Source of the DNA: Patescibacteria group bacterium | GTDB lineage: Bacteria; Patescibacteriota; Patescibacteriia; UBA1558; UBA10009 | Direction of reading: 5' to 3' | DNA length: 64,000 nt | NCBI GenBank assembly: GCA_041662565.1 | Contig: JBAZSE010000001.1 | Coordinates: 257,084-321,083, forward strand | Shown here: piece after piece, positions 1,696-62,376 of the stretch | How positions within the stretch are numbered: position 1 is the first letter of the stretch | How the letters are laid out: every line of letters starts with the position of its first letter | The notes under the pieces: model-generated | Databases searched by the model: none | Told to the model about the DNA's origin: nothing | What the model saw: only the letters and a program-made list of their open reading frames with translations | Made by a program: the position numbers and the translations under genes

Positions 1696-1849
1696 TAGTT
1701 TTTTAAATTGATACATTTAACCGCTCGTCTAAATTAGACGGGCGGTTTTTGGTTAAATTTATTATTTTGATTTGAAATAAAAAAGGCCAGCCTAGCTAAA
1801 AGATCAAATATGATTGATCTGGTAGCTAAGCTGGCAGGGTCATCTCTGG

Positions 1850-2458
1850 TTACATGCACATGATGGAGTGTATGCTTGTCAGAGGCACGCCTAATTGTTG
1901 CGCGCGCGGATCATCTTTGTCCAACCGGACTCGGCGACATGATTCATCAATGAAGTTGAAATCAACAACATCGAATTCGCCTGGTCCTTTGCGGATTTTG
2001 GAATGAACCAAGCCGATGGCAGTCAGGCCAGCTGTTTCTTGTGCATGGAAAGCGTGGATTACTTGGGCGCTCACCAGCAAGCTTTGGCCGGCAACTGCTG
2101 GATGATCGATCAGCTCGAATTCTTCTTGGCCATGCTGGAAGTTGGTCATCAAGGTGCCGCCGTTGGGGTTTTTGAACCCGTGTTCTTCTCCCAAGAAGAG
2201 AAAAGTCGTGGCGCCTTTCATATGCAAGTGACAGTCGGTCATAGTGTCCGCTTGCATCAGAATCAGTTCGCACTGGTCGGGTTTGTAGCCCGCGGCAATG
2301 AGCAGAGGATCTGCATCTTTGAACCAGCCGATGCGGAATCCCAGAAGCTCTTGCTGATCGGTCAGCACGGAAAAGGGTTTGTCCGCAGCTTTGCGAACCA
2401 GCTCGGCCGCTGCTTGTAAAACACGCAGCCGTCTTTTTTTCTCGGTCGTTATATCCAT
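1850..2458 (-). CDS. cupin-fold protein (possible metal-dependent dioxygenase-like), compositionally foreign
   Basis: 202 aa with an H-x-H...E cupin-like motif (CHLHMKGATTFLFLGEEHGF). Local GC is about 55% against about 37% in the flanks. Confidence 0.4.
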   Translation of the reverse strand: MDITTEKKRRLRVLQAAAELVRKAADKPFSVLTDQQELLGFRIGWFKDADPLLIAAGYKPDQCELILMQADTMTDCHLHMKGATTFLFLGEEHGFKNPNGGTLMTNFQHGQEEFELIDHPAVAGQSLLVSAQVIHAFHAQETAGLTAIGLVHSKIRKGPGEFDVVDFNFIDESCRRVRLDKDDPRAQQLGVPLTSIHSIMCM

Positions 2459-2495
2459 TGTTTCGTTCCTTGTGGTGGTTTGGTTGTTGGTTTGG

Positions 2496-2822
2496 CTAGT
2501 CAGTTATAAAACTCCAGCCGGTTGGTATTGGTGTATGTTCAGTAGAAGTTTGAGTCAGTGATGGAATCAGTTGAGCTTCAGAAGCATTGGCTGGTTGAAC
2601 GTTTGAATCAGTTGTTGAAGTTAGTTTTTGGTTTTGCCAGCCAGCGCCATCTTCGGTTATTGGGTTGATGATTGACATCGATGTCCTGCGGTTTAAATTG
2701 TAGGGTACAAAAAACTTCCTCAAATGGAAGTCTTCTTGAGAGATATTATTGTTTGGTAAGTTTATTTCATAACATACCCAAAGAAGGCTTTCATCTGAAA
2801 TGAGACAAAATGTTGGCGCCAA
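2496..2822 (-). CDS. hypothetical protein (Thr/Ser/Gln-rich C-terminus)
   Basis: 108-aa ORF between the TrpR-like and cupin genes on the same strand. No recognisable domain. Confidence 0.25.
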   Translation of the reverse strand: MAPTFCLISDESLLWVCYEINLPNNNISQEDFHLRKFFVPYNLNRRTSMSIINPITEDGAGWQNQKLTSTTDSNVQPANASEAQLIPSLTQTSTEHTPIPTGWSFITD

Positions 2823-2844
2823 TTTTGGTTAAGGTAAATTTGTT

Positions 2845-3123
2845 TCATGGTTTAAGTTTTAAAATTTGATTAAATCCGCCTTGGGGATTTTTTAACATGC
2901 GTGCGCCTCGGGTAATGGTGGCAATGGCTATTTTTAGTTTTTTTGCCACAACTCGCTGTGGCAAACCCTGATGCAATAATTTAACTATACTCAGCCGTCT
3001 TTTAATTTCCGCTAGTTCAGCCGGAGTCAATAAATCCTTTAAAAATATGGCCATAAACTTAGGATCTTTGATTTTGGCCAAAACTTTATTTATTTCCCAA
3101 TCCGTTAAAGTATCTTTTTTCAT
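2845..3123 (-). CDS. TrpR/YerC-YecD family DNA-binding protein
   Basis: 92 aa with the LLTPAELAEIKRRLSIVKLL...IATITRGARML pattern typical of the TrpR-like YerC/YecD family. Confidence 0.7.
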   Translation of the reverse strand: MKKDTLTDWEINKVLAKIKDPKFMAIFLKDLLTPAELAEIKRRLSIVKLLHQGLPQRVVAKKLKIAIATITRGARMLKNPQGGFNQILKLKP

Positions 3124-3131
3124 AATATATA

Positions 3132-3145
3132 TTGTACTAGTACAA
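3132..3145. promoter_or_regulatory. perfect palindrome TTGTACTAGTACAA (trp-operator-like GTACT/AGTAC half sites) at the 5-prime end of the TrpR-like gene
   Basis: 14-bp perfect inverted repeat 9 bp upstream of the minus-strand start codon. A further GTAC half-site lies at 3147-3153. Confidence 0.45.
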
Positions 3146-3297
3146 TAGTACAGTATTGCATAAGTAATGTCAAATAGGGGGCTGTGGATAAGTGTTGAGC
3201 TAAAACAGTGGCAACTTTTAGGAAACGGTAATTGTAGTTAAGATTCTATTATTGAATTTTTAGATATTTTTTGGCTAATATTAGCTAAATTATCTGG

Positions 3298-3326
3298 TTG
3301 AAATATTTAACGACAAATGTTATAAT
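3298..3326 (+). promoter_or_regulatory. sigma70-like promoter (TTGAAA-17-TATAAT) upstream of adk
   Basis: Near-consensus hexamers with 17-bp spacing, 28 bp before the adk start. Confidence 0.5.
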
Positions 3327-3353
3327 GTTGATATTGAATAATCAAGTTTATTT

Positions 3354-3986
3354 ATGAATATTATTATTTTTGGGCCCCAAGGGTCTGGTAAGGGTACGCA
3401 AGCCAACGCCTTATCAACCAAGTTAAACATTCCCCAAATTACTATGGGTGATTTATTGCGCGCCGAAGTTGCCAGTAATTCGGCTTTAGGCGAGCAATTA
3501 AAAGCCATTATGAATCAGGGCAGTTTAGTGCCCAATGAAGTTACGGCCACTTTGTTGGAACACCGGTTAAAAAAAGATGATTGCCAAAATGGTTTTATTT
3601 TGGACGGCTATCCTCGCAATCTTGTTCAGGCCCAAACTTTGGATGCTTTAGTTCACCTGGATACGGCAATGGAAATTTGGATTAGTGATGAGGAAGCTTT
3701 AAGTAGGATCGGCGGGCGCAGAAGCTGCCCCAAGTGCGGTACAATTTTTCATTTAATTACCAATCCGTCAAAAACGGATAATGTTTGCGATAAGTGCGGC
3801 ACCGCCTTGATTATCAGGGAAGATGATAAAGAAGAAGTTATTAAAAAGCGTTTAGCGGTTTATCATGAACAAACCGAACCCTTGGTTGCTTATTATCAAA
3901 CCAAAGGAATTTATTTAAAAATCGATGGCCGGCCTTCTATTGCCGAAGTTAATAAAGAAGTTTTTGCCAAATTAAACATTGCTTAA
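3354..3986 (+). CDS. adk: adenylate kinase (with Cys4 zinc lid)
   Basis: P-loop GPQGSGKGTQ, plus lid CPKCG...CDKCG. Confidence 0.95.
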   Translation: MNIIIFGPQGSGKGTQANALSTKLNIPQITMGDLLRAEVASNSALGEQLKAIMNQGSLVPNEVTATLLEHRLKKDDCQNGFILDGYPRNLVQAQTLDALVHLDTAMEIWISDEEALSRIGGRRSCPKCGTIFHLITNPSKTDNVCDKCGTALIIREDDKEEVIKKRLAVYHEQTEPLVAYYQTKGIYLKIDGRPSIAEVNKEVFAKLNIA

Positions 3987-3991
3987 TTTTT

Positions 3992-4747
3992 ATGACTAAC
4001 TATACCATCAAAACTCCCGAGGAGATTAAAAAATTGCAAGCCGGAGGAAAAATCTTGGCAAAAATAGTTAAGGCCTTGGGTAAGGCAGCCAAGCCAGGTA
4101 TGACTACTTTAGAGTTGGATACTTTGGCTAGAAAATTAATGGCTGATTATAAAGTTCAGCCGTCATTTTTGGAATTCGGTGATCCGCCGTATCCGGCCGT
4201 GTTATGCACATCAATTAACGAAGGTATTGTCCATTGTATTCCCAACGAAACCGTTTTAAAAGAAGGTGATATTATTGGGATTGATTGCGGGATTTGGCAT
4301 GAAAATTTATGCACCGATATGGCTATAACCGTGGGTATTGGTAAAGTTAGCGCTGAAGCCAAAAAATTAATGGAAGTAACGGAAAAATCCTTGAATTTGG
4401 CGATTAAGCAGATCAAGCCGGGCAACACTTTGGGCGATATTGGTTATGCTGTGCAAAGCTATGCCGAAAGTTTTGGCTACGGCGTAGTTAGGCAATTGGT
4501 TGGTCATGGTGTTGGCTACGAAGTCCATGAAGAGCCCAGAATTCCTAATTACGGTATTAAGGGTAAGGGTTTGGTGTTAGAGCCCGGCATGGTTATTGCC
4601 GTTGAGCCGATGATTACGGCGGGCAGTTATGATATTGAAGTCAGCTTTAACGGCTGGGATATTGTTACCAAAGATAAATCATTAGCCGCTCATTTTGAAC
4701 ATACCATTGTAGTTACTAAAAAAGGTTGTGAAGTTTTAACCAAGTAA
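3992..4747 (+). CDS. map: methionine aminopeptidase type I
   Basis: 251 aa with the conserved metal ligands D, D, H, E, E in the pita-bread fold pattern (GHGVGYEVHEEP). Confidence 0.95.
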   Translation: MTNYTIKTPEEIKKLQAGGKILAKIVKALGKAAKPGMTTLELDTLARKLMADYKVQPSFLEFGDPPYPAVLCTSINEGIVHCIPNETVLKEGDIIGIDCGIWHENLCTDMAITVGIGKVSAEAKKLMEVTEKSLNLAIKQIKPGNTLGDIGYAVQSYAESFGYGVVRQLVGHGVGYEVHEEPRIPNYGIKGKGLVLEPGMVIAVEPMITAGSYDIEVSFNGWDIVTKDKSLAAHFEHTIVVTKKGCEVLTK

Positions 4748-4757
4748 TTTATTTATC

Positions 4758-5141
4758 ATGAAATTAGTCGGAATTGATTACGGCTCCAGCAAGGTTGGTT
4801 TGGCTTTAGGAGAAAGCGATATTAAAATGGCTTTGCCTCATAAAGTTGTTGCTCCACAAGAACTGTTTCTGGAAATAGAGCGCTTGGTGGAGCGCGAGGG
4901 GTTGGATTTGGCGGTGATGGGTTTGCCAATGGGCATGAACGGCTTAGAAACCGAACAGACCCAAACGGTTAAAAAATTTGCCGCCGAGTTGGCGGAAAAA
5001 ATTACCATACCTTTGGTTTTTGAAGACGAACGTTTATCCACCGCGCAAGCAAAACGAGACGGCCATGATGATGCCGTGGCCGCCATGTATATTTTACAAT
5101 CTTATTTAGACCGGACTTATGGCTCTAACAGTGCTAAATAA
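4758..5141 (+). CDS. ruvX: Holliday junction resolvase-like protein YqgF/RuvX
   Basis: 127 aa starting MKLVGIDYGSSKVGLALG, the RNase H-like YqgF signature. Confidence 0.85.
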   Translation: MKLVGIDYGSSKVGLALGESDIKMALPHKVVAPQELFLEIERLVEREGLDLAVMGLPMGMNGLETEQTQTVKKFAAELAEKITIPLVFEDERLSTAQAKRDGHDDAVAAMYILQSYLDRTYGSNSAK

Positions 5142-6171
5142 TTATCTTTTGCCTTTTGCTTCGGCTTTTATTATTTCGGTTATCTTAACTTATTTAATCA
5201 AAGGGCTGGCTTTAAAGTTGGATATAGTTGATCGGCCGAGCGAACCCCGGAAAATTCATCACGTGCCTATCCCTAAATTGGGCGGGTTGGCAATTTATTT
5301 AACGGTTTTACTTTTAACCGTTATTTTTTATCAATCGGGCATGTTGCTTGACGGCAAAATCCAAGTTGCTTATTTGGTCGGTTTTTTAATCGGTGGGGCG
5401 ATTTTGATGTTAGGTGGCTGGTTGGATGATAAATACGATCTAAAGCCCGGCCAACAGTTTGTTTTTCCGGTGTTGGCCGCGCTTGTTGTTTTATTAAGCG
5501 GAATTTCGGTTAGCTATGTTACCAGCCCCTTGGGGGGCATTATTAATTTAACAAATACCTGGTGGCCGCCGATTTTGGTTTTTGTTTGGCTGGTGGGTAT
5601 GATGTATACTACTAAGTTTTTGGATGGTTTGGATGGTTTGGTTGGTGGAATTTCGGGCATCGGCTATATTATTCTTTTTTTGGTGAGTTTGTTTTGGGAT
5701 GTGCCCTTAAGCGGAACCTCGATACTTTGTTTGATTTTAGCAGGCTCGGCTTTGGGATTTTTGGTTTGGAATTTTTATCCGGCTAAGATTTTTTTGGGCG
5801 AAGGCGGTAGTTTGTTTTTAGGTTTTTCATTGGCCGTGCTGGCCATTATCAGCGGGGCCAAAATCGCCACAGCTTTGTTAATTATGGGTATTCCAATTTT
5901 GGATGTGGCTTGGGTAATTGCCAGACGCATTTTTAAAGAAAAAAAATCCGCCTTTTTGGGCGATAGCAAGCATTTGCATTTTAGATTGTTGGATGCCGGT
6001 TTAACCCAATCCCAAGCGGTTTTATTTTTATATCTGTTAACCTTGCTGTTTGGCTTAAGTTCTTTGTTCCAACAAACAATCGGCAAAATAATAACTTTGA
6101 TAATTTTGGGAGTGGTTATGCTGTTGTTGGCTTGGTGGCTGGTAAGCAGATATAAAAAAAGAATCGGTTAA
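5119..6171 (+). CDS. glycosyltransferase family 4, MraY/WecA-like polyprenyl-phosphate sugar-1-phosphate transferase
   Basis: 10-11 TM segments with DDxxDL and GxGGSLxLG motifs (DDKYDLKPG; FLGEGGSLFLGF). Confidence 0.7.
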   Translation: MALTVLNNYLLPFASAFIISVILTYLIKGLALKLDIVDRPSEPRKIHHVPIPKLGGLAIYLTVLLLTVIFYQSGMLLDGKIQVAYLVGFLIGGAILMLGGWLDDKYDLKPGQQFVFPVLAALVVLLSGISVSYVTSPLGGIINLTNTWWPPILVFVWLVGMMYTTKFLDGLDGLVGGISGIGYIILFLVSLFWDVPLSGTSILCLILAGSALGFLVWNFYPAKIFLGEGGSLFLGFSLAVLAIISGAKIATALLIMGIPILDVAWVIARRIFKEKKSAFLGDSKHLHFRLLDAGLTQSQAVLFLYLLTLLFGLSSLFQQTIGKIITLIILGVVMLLLAWWLVSRYKKRIG

Positions 6172-11673: not shown

Positions 11674-12021
11674 ATGCTAAGATTAGCTAATTTATTTCGA
11701 CCAAAATTGCAAGATGAAGCCATGGATGCTTATTTTCATAGATTGCCCAATGGAATACAGGTAGAATGGTTTCGCGATGGGAATTTTATTATCGGTAATA
11801 TTTTTGCAGAGGGGAATAAGTATATGACTCAAGCCGTATCAGCCAATGAATTTATTGAGATGGTTAATGATACTTTATTGGCTGTTTATGATATTCCCAA
11901 AAACTATCAAAACGAACTATTAAAGTATAAAAAATTTAAGCCGTCAATTCAGGAATTTAATGATCTTAATAACGCCGCTATTAAAAAATCTTCGTTAAAA
12001 TTTGAAAAGCAATTAGCGTAA
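11674..12021 (+). CDS. HicB-like antitoxin N-domain protein (UPF0150-like)
   Basis: Pattern VEWFRDGNFIIGNIFAEGNKYMTQAVSANEFIEMVNDTLLAV fits the HicB N-domain consensus (vpdlpg..tqG.t.eEa..n..eai). It is adjacent to a HicA-like ORF. Confidence 0.4.
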   Translation: MLRLANLFRPKLQDEAMDAYFHRLPNGIQVEWFRDGNFIIGNIFAEGNKYMTQAVSANEFIEMVNDTLLAVYDIPKNYQNELLKYKKFKPSIQEFNDLNNAAIKKSSLKFEKQLA

Positions 12022-61931: not shown

Positions 61932-62094
61932 TTCTTTTGAAAAAAAATCATAAAATCCTCACCTTAACGGTGGGGGTTTTTGATAAAAACCCAGTAAATA
62001 CTTATCCACTTTTAAGATGCTTCATTTTTCCCTTATTTTTTGCTATAATTTATCCACAAGTCGATAAAACCTTAATAAATAACCAAAATTTACT

Positions 62095-62376
62095 ATGGCC
62101 AAAATGACCAAGTCACAAATGCTCCAAAGTTTGGCTGACAGCACCCAAATGTCCAAAAAGGACCTGTCAACAGTTTTGGAAGCATTAACCTCCTTAGTTT
62201 ATAAGGAAGTTAAAACAAATGGCGAATGCACCATTCCGGGCATTGGCAAGTTAGTCAAAAAGCATCGCAGTGCCAGACAGGGCCGCAATCCTGCCACCGG
62301 CGCAACTATTCAGATTCCTGCCAAAACCGTGGTTAAGTTCAGGGTTTCCAAGGCAGCCAAGGACGCCATTTTGTAA
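62095..62376 (+). CDS. hup: DNA-binding protein HU
   Basis: MTKSQMLQSLA...GIGKL...RQGRNPATG: the HU/IHF fold signature. Terminator at 62391-62424. Confidence 0.9.
   Translation: MAKMTKSQMLQSLADSTQMSKKDLSTVLEALTSLVYKEVKTNGECTIPGIGKLVKKHRSARQGRNPATGATIQIPAKTVVKFRVSKAAKDAIL

Follow-up and report, generated by a model that had tools for sequence, protein, structure and literature searches.

The secY-adk junction was analysed in a stretch of 64,000 nucleotides from the genome of a Patescibacteria group bacterium (contig JBAZSE010000001.1); the whole stretch is referred to here as the window, and positions are counted from its first letter. Pfam searches located rplO (31-378) and secY (424-1695) and, further on, adk (3354-3986) and map (3992-4747), all on the + strand. 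The gap between secY and adk, positions 1696-3353, measured 1658 bp, in agreement with a preliminary description of this DNA in which rplO-secY and adk-map were split by 1.65 kb carrying genes on the opposite strand. Its reverse strand was found to hold a gene of the trpR family and a cupin gene. The analyses described below indicate, with a probability of about 0.75 in our estimate, that the reverse strand of the segment 1779-3191 forms a single operon with dual control by tryptophan, in which the cargo genes have been exchanged and the control module is native to the lineage. The features of the segment are listed in the direction in which the operon is read.

3183-3191, - strand: DnaA-box-like sequence TTATCCACA, 9 nt upstream of the -35 hexamer
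3145-3173, - strand: predicted operon promoter, TTGACA (3173-3168), 17 nt, TACTAT (3150-3145), matching at 10 of 12 positions in the promoter scan
3130-3151, no strand assigned: predicted TrpR operator, the palindrome TATTGTACTAGTACAATA (3130-3147) and a separate GTACT half-site that precedes it by 8 bp on the - strand
2845-3123, - strand: trpR-like repressor gene, 92 amino acids (PF01371)
2762-2848, - strand: leader peptide open reading frame (ORF), trpL-like, 28 codons, read from the sequence as MKQIYLNQNWRQHFVSFQMKAFFGYVMK followed by a stop codon
2720-2798, - strand: predicted antiterminator, formed by two arms of 30 nt (2769-2798 with 2720-2749) that make up inverted repeat I1 and are 73% complementary
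2709-2731, - strand: predicted attenuator terminator, hairpin (A)CTTCC-ATTTGA-GGAAG(T) with its stem-loop at 2715-2730 and U6 at 2709-2714, -4.8 kcal/mol
2496-2678, - strand: candidate ORF of 60 amino acids (ORF60)
1850-2458, - strand: cargo gene p202, a divergent cupin of 202 amino acids, recognised by AlphaFold and Foldseek and a composition outlier
1779-1835, - strand: predicted intrinsic terminator at the end of the operon, stem 1786-1835 and U-run 1779-1784 (inverted repeat I2)

The 92-amino-acid protein matched PF01371 with an E value of 8.8e-21 (74.2 bits, the cut-off being 27, over profile positions 8-85 of 88), and a PDB search with it retrieved TrpR structures. Alignment with E. coli TrpR revealed that T44, R54, I79, T81, T83, R84 and G85 are invariant and that the recognition helix, IATITRG, is identical; we take T44, R54, R84 and G85 to form the corepressor pocket and I79, A80, T81 and T83 to read the DNA. 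The TrpR-type repressor gene reported earlier on the opposite strand was thus recovered with its key residues. Homologues were gathered through a protein database, contig look-ups and one metagenome scan. The closest, of 70-86% identity, came from Komeilibacteria-type metagenome-assembled genomes (MAGs); the nearest SecY (87% identity) came from a Candidatus Komeilibacteria MAG, and the host MAG of the window is itself closest to Komeilibacteria. By our own reading of the sequences and clusters, the cargo clusters across the TrpR loci included 17 trpE-like, 13 trpB-like and 12 trpG-like ones, and many of the loci related to the window have the order trpR, leader, trpB; no his genes were recognised among these cargo clusters. 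Because the cargo at distant loci is trpB-like, trpE-like or trpG-like, gene content indicates that this family of TrpR homologues is a genuine tryptophan regulator.

The palindrome TATTGTACTAGTACAATA is a perfect one of 18 bp and lies 6 nt from the trpR ATG, which bears out the earlier description of a perfect palindrome adjoining the start codon. Its core, GTACTAGTAC at 3134-3143, is the sole copy in the window, where 0.28 copies are expected even if one mismatch is allowed. On the - strand the predicted operator reads GTACTATTGTACTAGTAC and extends over the -10 hexamer and the site where transcription is expected to begin, the order of elements being TTGACA-N17-TACTAT-TGTACTAGTACA-N9-ATG, which is sigma-70-like. 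The arrangement TTGAC-17-TACTAT is also kept in relatives, and the 5' untranslated region of the operon is about 14 nt long and has no Shine-Dalgarno sequence. Within 130 nt upstream of the TrpR homologues, an exact GTACTAGTAC was present at 33 and a copy with no more than one mismatch at 54 of the 76 distinct loci, against backgrounds in the same loci of 0.0003 and 0.005 per 130 nt, respectively. The site nearly always adjoins the -10 hexamer or the ATG while its flanks differ between loci, and the association extends to TrpR homologues with as little as about 44% identity. The E. coli trp operator that has been used as a TrpR roadblock is CGAACTAGTTAACTAGTACGCAAG (PMC11748629), and both it and the operator of the window contain ACTAGTAC. 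From the conservation of the operator upstream of the homologues we infer, with good support, that trpR is very probably autoregulated through the palindrome, as had been proposed before.

The DnaA-box-like TTATCCACA upstream of the -35 hexamer is one of two copies in the window. Of the 76 distinct regions upstream of TrpR genes 26 contain it exactly, where 0.0024 copies would be expected per 130 nt. In 32 of the 34 matches it lay on the trpR strand, and the trpR promoter may be under DnaA-dependent control. The other exact copy in the window (62050-62058, + strand) is located at the promoter of an HU-like gene (62095-62376), and a second box, TTATCCAC (62002-62010), lies about 40 nt upstream of that copy.

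The region downstream of trpR had been described as a gene of 108 amino acids (ORF108, 2496-2822, - strand, TTG start). This ORF is absent from public gene calls, and its 5' half crosses a conserved attenuator in the wrong frame; it was rejected as a gene, and the region was found to hold a Trp leader and an attenuator instead. The leader ATG overlaps the trpR stop codon (ATGA, 2848-2845), which suggests re-initiation, and no Shine-Dalgarno sequence was found at the leader of the window; since it starts at the trpR stop without such a sequence, the leader is likely translated by re-initiation after trpR. In most loci the leader starts about -17 to +15 nt from the TrpR stop, and leader ORFs with W, WW or WWW at or beside that stop were found at about 40 distinct loci. 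The leader peptides of relatives include one beginning MKNIQLSQNWWQ as well as MKNRLNNQNWWQSHFWRSR, MKMDLNNQNWWWNAFLWQSH and MNHHKNNQTWWWTVHI, and motifs of the type LNQNWW(W)Q occur in them. Tandem Trp codons were found in small ORFs 3' of the TrpR genes in 29 of 74 distinct regions and in none of either control set (reverse-complement and downstream sequences). Two other readings of the leader region were discarded. CAAAATTGGTGGCA could be taken for a T-box (UGGN pairing with the 3' end of a tRNA), and its TGG TGG proved to be in-frame Trp codons at about 40 loci. A ten-codon mini-ORF (MKAFFGYVMK or MEGFFGYVIK) has its frame broken in two relatives (L085 and L087); the conservation over it reflects the antiterminator RNA, and the leader proper begins at the trpR stop.

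A hairpin with a T-run homologous to the attenuator terminator occurs at the same place in relatives. The 3' arm of the antiterminator takes up the 5' half of the terminator, and the minimum-energy fold of the leader, when free, contains the antiterminator. Partition functions computed with the ribosome-covered stretch masked gave a terminator probability in the window of 0.00 with the ribosome at the Trp codon, which leaves the antiterminator free, and of 0.74 with the ribosome at the leader stop. When the middle segment was shuffled the mean terminator probability was 0.77, and 2 of 100 shuffles were as low as the observed value. Switching between a probability of at most 0.1 (ribosome at the Trp codons) and at least 0.7 (leader stop) was obtained for 33 of the 43 loci with a leader and a terminator, and the sequences of the switching loci are unrelated.

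The mechanism that we propose is built on the sequence elements, their conservation across the loci and the thermodynamic behaviour of the switch. When tryptophan is plentiful, TrpR carrying tryptophan, which we infer to be its corepressor, would cover the -10 hexamer and the transcription start and repress its own operon. Ribosomes that finish TrpR would begin again at the leader and follow the polymerase closely. When charged tRNA-Trp is scarce, the ribosome would stall at the Trp codon (2819-2821), the antiterminator (2769-2798 with 2720-2749) would form and transcription would run on into the cargo. A ribosome that gets as far as the leader stop (2762-2764) would sit on the antiterminator's 5' arm, so that the terminator (2715-2731 with U6) would form and the transcript would end. 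The cargo, that is the possible ORF60 and the cupin, would then be expressed only under tryptophan starvation.

Comparison with the relatives revealed nucleotide homology in adk and in the module, promoter to terminator (window 3153 to 2698); beyond the attenuator terminator (2698) it is lost, to return exactly at the secY stop codon (1697). The module of promoter, operator, trpR and leader shares about 76% nucleotide identity with that of L087 and about 65% with that of L088, two relatives with the module at the same junction, and in both it is followed by a different cargo. The loci most closely compared are the following.

L087, adk-secY junction: cargo a 216-amino-acid uncharacterised protein
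L088, adk-secY junction: cargo an AstE/AspA-type deacylase, a 464-amino-acid uncharacterised protein and tRNA-Trp
L089: module at the adk-secY junction
L085 and L086, Komeilibacteria-type contigs, between prfA/rpmE and rpsB: cargo a 59-amino-acid ORF and a UCP032817-like protein
L091, Komeilibacteria-type contig, between prfA/rpmE and rpsB: cargo a 342-amino-acid uncharacterised protein, tRNA-Trp and a histidine phosphatase
L092 and L093: module with a 260-amino-acid uncharacterised protein and a histidine phosphatase, and in L092 also tRNA-Trp

In nearly all TrpR loci the cargo is co-directional with the module and lies close behind the terminator. The operator, leader and terminator recur at dozens of metagenomic TrpR loci and the cupin occurs only in the window; sequence comparison thus indicates that the control module is native to the lineage and that the cargo behind the attenuator is exchanged. 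The cargo contains, or ends with, a co-directional gene for tRNA-Trp (CCA) in L088 (5270-5344), L091 (1862-1937) and L092 (3679-3755), while no tRNA gene was found in the secY-adk segment of the window and no tRNA-Trp gene in its 64 kb. The gene order suggests that the supply of tRNA-Trp itself may be under the attenuator in some lineages.

Some of the relatives showed peculiarities of their own. L094 (4177-7428) carries two TrpR paralogues in tandem, the first followed by a 379-amino-acid CX3CX2C (radical-SAM-like) protein and a 60-amino-acid hydrophobic ORF, and the second with GTACTAGTAC upstream and with GTACTAGTGC downstream, ahead of an M24 peptidase gene. In L097 a 79-amino-acid ORF ending in GYGYGFTW and a stop lies ahead of a DUF3182 protein. 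The public gene call at 2471-3061 of L086 has an in-frame stop under genetic code 11.

The cargo protein p202 itself had no Pfam or NCBIfam match, and a PDB sequence search with it was empty. Its family comprises 29 representative clusters, of which 23 sequences were aligned (alignment A3); two residues, H77 and H135, are invariant, and another two, E64 and H79, are kept in at least 90% of the 23 sequences. Among these relatives 4 of 23 matched Cupin_1 (best E value 4.5e-6) and 2 matched Cupin_2, all weakly, and a database search with the A3 profile returned 4 proteins. A first AlphaFold model, from an alignment of two sequences, had a predicted local distance difference test score (pLDDT) of 52 and was unusable; it was superseded by the model on the 23-sequence alignment, with a pLDDT of 94 and a predicted template modelling score of 0.88. 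The top PDB matches of this model in Foldseek were all cupins (probability 1.00 for many, best E value 2.4e-7), among them Ni-quercetinase, Pac13, phosphomannose isomerases, cysteine dioxygenase, ADO and KdgF, and the earlier assignment of the 202-amino-acid ORF to the cupins was upheld by it. Judged from the model, p202 is a cupin-fold protein with a conserved His/Glu metal-ligand set and a candidate metalloenzyme. It shares the fold and the HxH...H plus Glu pattern with cupin metalloenzymes such as Ni-quercetinase, cysteine dioxygenase, Pac13 and the sugar isomerases, from which it differs in its low identity (10-16%), query-normalised TM-scores of about 0.4-0.45 and an extra N-terminal helix. 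A kinship of p202 with the UCP032817-like cargo of L085 was also considered and rejected, the two being unrelated by hhalign (probability 7.7%).

The guanine-plus-cytosine (GC) fraction of the window is 0.392, and its 51 ORFs average 0.401 +/- 0.038. With a GC of 0.52 and a GC at third codon positions of 0.58 the cupin gene is the highest of the 51 (z = 3.1), while trpR, at 0.36, is host-like. The compositional contrast noted before is therefore real, and the figures then given for it, 55% against 37%, were too wide and become 52% against 39%. The closest homologue of p202 (45% identity) lies on a short, GC-rich contig (about 57% by estimate), and p202 was not found in any other TrpR locus of the set. 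Because the gene is a GC outlier, is absent from the related TrpR loci and has its nearest homologue on a GC-rich contig, the cupin gene was probably acquired horizontally, from a donor richer in GC. Neither integrase-like nor transposase-like proteins were found among the ORFs of the secY-adk gap, and a search for repeats gave no convincing flanking ones. Of two further homologues, P0024 comes from a contig with 55% GC and has neither TrpR nor an operator or leader in its vicinity, and P0026, in a Paceibacterota genome, stands directly after map with no TrpR nearby; neither neighbourhood points to a function.

ORF60 (MSIINPITEDG...PTGWSFITD) is the 3' part of ORF108 and has AGGA 6 nt upstream of its ATG. 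It is the first ORF after the attenuator and precedes p202, and its reality is uncertain. It ends in GWSFITD, and a called gene of 59 amino acids at the same position in L085 and L086 (6447-6626 in L085) ends in GWSFND; both ORF60 and the L085 protein are rich in S, T, Q, N and P and have two Trp residues each at similar positions. A global alignment of the two was not significant, with 247 of 2000 shuffles scoring as well, and what they share is confined to the C-terminal motif GWSFxD.

The two genes that border the segment have signals of their own.

1719-1752, + strand: predicted secY intrinsic terminator, a 13-bp stem followed by a T-run, from the terminator scan; -21.8 kcal/mol, z = -6.3
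3274-3326, + strand: adk promoter, TTGAAA (3298-3303), 17 nt, TG-TATAAT (3321-3326), matching at 11 of 12 positions, with the palindrome GCTAATATTAGC (3274-3285) upstream

A sub-threshold Rfam match to the trpB motif at 1679-1757 is merely the secY terminator. The terminator at the end of the reverse operon (1779-1835) folds with -32.9 kcal/mol (z = -7.4, 0 of 200 shuffles as stable); this strong predicted terminator closes the operon toward secY and should shield secY from antisense read-through. The near-consensus adk promoter at 3298-3326 stood as it had been described, including the TG upstream of TATAAT. On the contrary, the idea that the insertion uncoupled adk and forced it to gain this promoter was contradicted by L006, a locus without an insert that has an equivalent secY terminator and the adk promoter TTGAAA-17-(TG)TATAAT, preceded by GCTAAGATTAGC. 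The uncoupling of adk and its own promoter thus predate the cargo, and the comparison indicates that the promoter belongs to adk and not to the insert. A similar adk promoter with the same palindrome was found in L008 and L088, and the promoter only in L087.

The 12-bp palindrome upstream of the adk -35 hexamer is kept as GCTAAGATTAGC or GCTAATATTAGC in L006 (7326-7337), L008 and L088, and a copy of GCTAATATTAGC with one mismatch lies at 11676-11687, where an ORF begins. Another regulator may use the palindrome as its operator. On the other side of map the usual infA-rpmJ-rpsM do not follow; ruvX (4758-5141) and an MraY-like glycosyltransferase gene (5119-6171) do, and ruvX is found 3' of map in most relatives too.

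The adjacency of secY, adk and map had been counted among the most conserved gene orders of bacteria; among the relatives the secY-adk junction is not invariant. In the 58 with both genes the secY-adk gap ranged from 14 to 2390 bp and was at least 500 bp in 19, with diverse ORFs, and in six further loci map directly follows secY with no adk. Insertions between secY and adk are frequent in Patescibacteria, and the junction is an unreliable synteny anchor in this phylum. Similar large inserted ORFs recur in unrelated loci (L021, L030 and L049; L075, L077 and L082; L039 and L053), and L005, from the same assembly as L085, has an unrelated reverse-strand ORF in its secY-adk gap. In L178 (753-3701, Paceibacterota) secY and map are each split into two overlapping ORFs, by a frameshift or an assembly error.

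Several observations weigh against a tryptophan-controlled operon in the window. TIGR01321, the NCBIfam equivalog model for TrpR, was the best-scoring model for the repressor, and its 53.9 bits remain under the cut-off of 67.25. The leader of the window has a single Trp codon, at 2819-2821, and CGC (Arg) at the second Trp position, where many relatives have WW or WWW; with one Trp codon only, this attenuator may respond weakly to tryptophan or may be in decay. Its terminator is also the weakest of the set (-4.8 kcal/mol, probability 0.74), and the attenuator could be leaky. Rfam gave no match to Trp_leader (RF00513) in the window at an E value of 10 or less and nothing significant otherwise, and on 18 related loci it gave no match at the gathering score and none over the leaders; matches to Phe_leader, with E values of 2-4 and on both strands, were not significant. 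The cupin family shows no link to tryptophan, the homologues in L178 and L179 having no TrpR nearby. Lastly, the tryptophan auxotrophy of the host is presumed from what is generally known of Patescibacteria, 64 kb of its genome being in view.

The preliminary description had explained the segment as a foreign insert of three genes (TrpR/YerC-like, 108 amino acids and cupin) captured into the spc operon, with control by the repressor only and with adk forced to its own promoter. The palindrome, the membership of the repressor in the TrpR family and the atypical GC of the cupin agree with this, as does the finding that 0 of 80 species-representative genomes with a retrieved secY locus have TrpR or the cupin near secY. 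The cupin looks acquired as claimed, while TrpR is not part of a foreign insert: trpR, operator and leader are common to the same-junction loci L087, L088 and L089 and are found elsewhere in L085 and L091, and the GC of trpR is host-like. ORF108, the supposed third gene, is uncalled and overlaps the conserved attenuator, and L006 has the secY terminator and the adk promoter without any insert. The homology of the module and the arrangement in L006 already largely refute the three-gene insert, which we regard as quite unlikely.

It could also be that the hairpin behind trpR is the terminator of a monocistronic, autoregulated trpR, and that the cupin, with or without ORF60, is independent, has its own promoter and is under no tryptophan control. 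The one Trp codon and the weak terminator of the window fit this explanation, as do the cupin homologues elsewhere that are not linked to TrpR, and patescibacterial promoters may not fit a sigma-70 scan. However, that scan found no promoter-like site on the - strand between 2459 and 2700, 33 of 43 loci have kept a competing antiterminator although its sequence differs, nearly all loci have their cargo in the same direction and close behind the terminator, and the same leader stands ahead of trpB in other loci; an independent cupin is therefore unlikely. Nor is it probable, and here we would put the chance as very small, that the regulator senses another effector, for example histidine or another aromatic, and that the leader answers to aromatics or to translation in general. 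The TrpR family does include the histidine repressor HisR, the same as YerC (PMC9413887), the cut-off of the TrpR equivalog was not reached, and the leader of the window has a high content of Phe (4 of its 28 residues) and Tyr (2). On the contrary, the YerC/YecD model TIGR02531 gave 28.7 bits, under its cut-off of 42.2, against 53.9 for the TrpR model, the residues of the Trp pocket are kept, the leaders of relatives carry WW or WWW and no runs of His, and the cargo includes trpB, trpE, trpG and tRNA-Trp. A ribosome stalled at the FF codons would, moreover, cover the 5' arm of the antiterminator and favour termination. Dual control by tryptophan of one operon remains the explanation that we prefer.

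The operon so understood resembles known systems in part. In the E. coli trp operator adjacent TrpR sites are spaced 8 bp. The operator of the window is likewise built on ACTAGT/GTAC half-sites and faces the same recognition helix, and dual control by free tryptophan and by charged tRNA-Trp is predicted for it as in E. coli, with the same logic of Trp codons, antiterminator and terminator (PMC7755916). In E. coli, however, trpR is unlinked and trpL stands at the 5' end of the mRNA with its own ribosome-binding site, while here the leader lies downstream of trpR and is probably re-initiated through the ATGA overlap; the controlled genes of the window are not those of tryptophan biosynthesis, and the Rfam Trp_leader model is unmatched. 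In the trpRBA operon of Chlamydia trachomatis, trpR is the first gene of the operon that it represses and is followed by an annotated leader peptide with alternative hairpins and a cargo for tryptophan salvage (PMC7755916). The gene order of trpR, leader region and cargo is the same, and many relatives of the window have trpR, leader and trpB. The chlamydial TrpL is unvalidated, has 59 amino acids, lacks Trp codons in tandem and is expected to attenuate poorly (PMC7755916), whereas the leaders described here are short, mostly have WW or WWW, begin at the trpR stop and switch in silico, and the cargo of the window is a cupin and not trpBA. The conserved DnaA-box-like element upstream of the -35 hexamer distinguishes the present operon from both. 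HisR (YerC/YecD) of Firmicutes is a small repressor of the TrpR fold with a palindromic operator and, in some lineages, leader-peptide attenuators (PMC9413887). The present system is like it in having a TrpR-fold repressor of less than 100 amino acids, a palindromic operator and a combination with a leader attenuator, and unlike it in missing the TIGR02531 cut-off and in having Trp codons and trp genes and not his genes. The control logic of E. coli trp and of Chlamydia trpRBA is thus present in a new form, with the leader coupled to the trpR stop and with a foreign-looking cargo. In the literature that was searched no description was found of TrpR, trpL or such a circuit for Patescibacteria or the candidate phyla radiation, and nothing of use on tryptophan synthase in these groups or on the CTAG operator.

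A complete and testable circuit can be read here from sequence alone, in a phylum whose regulation is poorly characterised, and it recurs in dozens of uncultured lineages. The position of the leader at the stop codon of the repressor gene differs from that of a textbook attenuator and may replace polymerase pausing as the means of keeping ribosome and polymerase in synchrony. Patescibacteria are typically unable to make tryptophan, and the circuit raises the question of how bacteria that typically depend on tryptophan respond when it runs out. A tentative and broader suggestion, which we hold to be possible and less than even in its chances, is that the promoter/operator, trpR and coupled trpL form a conserved tryptophan-starvation sensor of Patescibacteria with lineage-specific outputs. 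These might be trpB (indole salvage), tRNA-Trp, the cupin with the 60-amino-acid peptide, the AstE/AspA-type deacylase and the histidine phosphatases, and perhaps radical-SAM-like proteins or proteins that are ATP-grasp-like by our own reading of the sequence. Equally tentatively, the uncharacterised genes would then serve in tryptophan scavenging or host exploitation, and the cupin might be an enzyme that modifies the small peptide, both being induced by starvation; the cargo may have some role in tryptophan supply. The circuit would mark the genes downstream of it as induced by tryptophan starvation and so offers a way to approach the function of orphan genes, the cupin among them.

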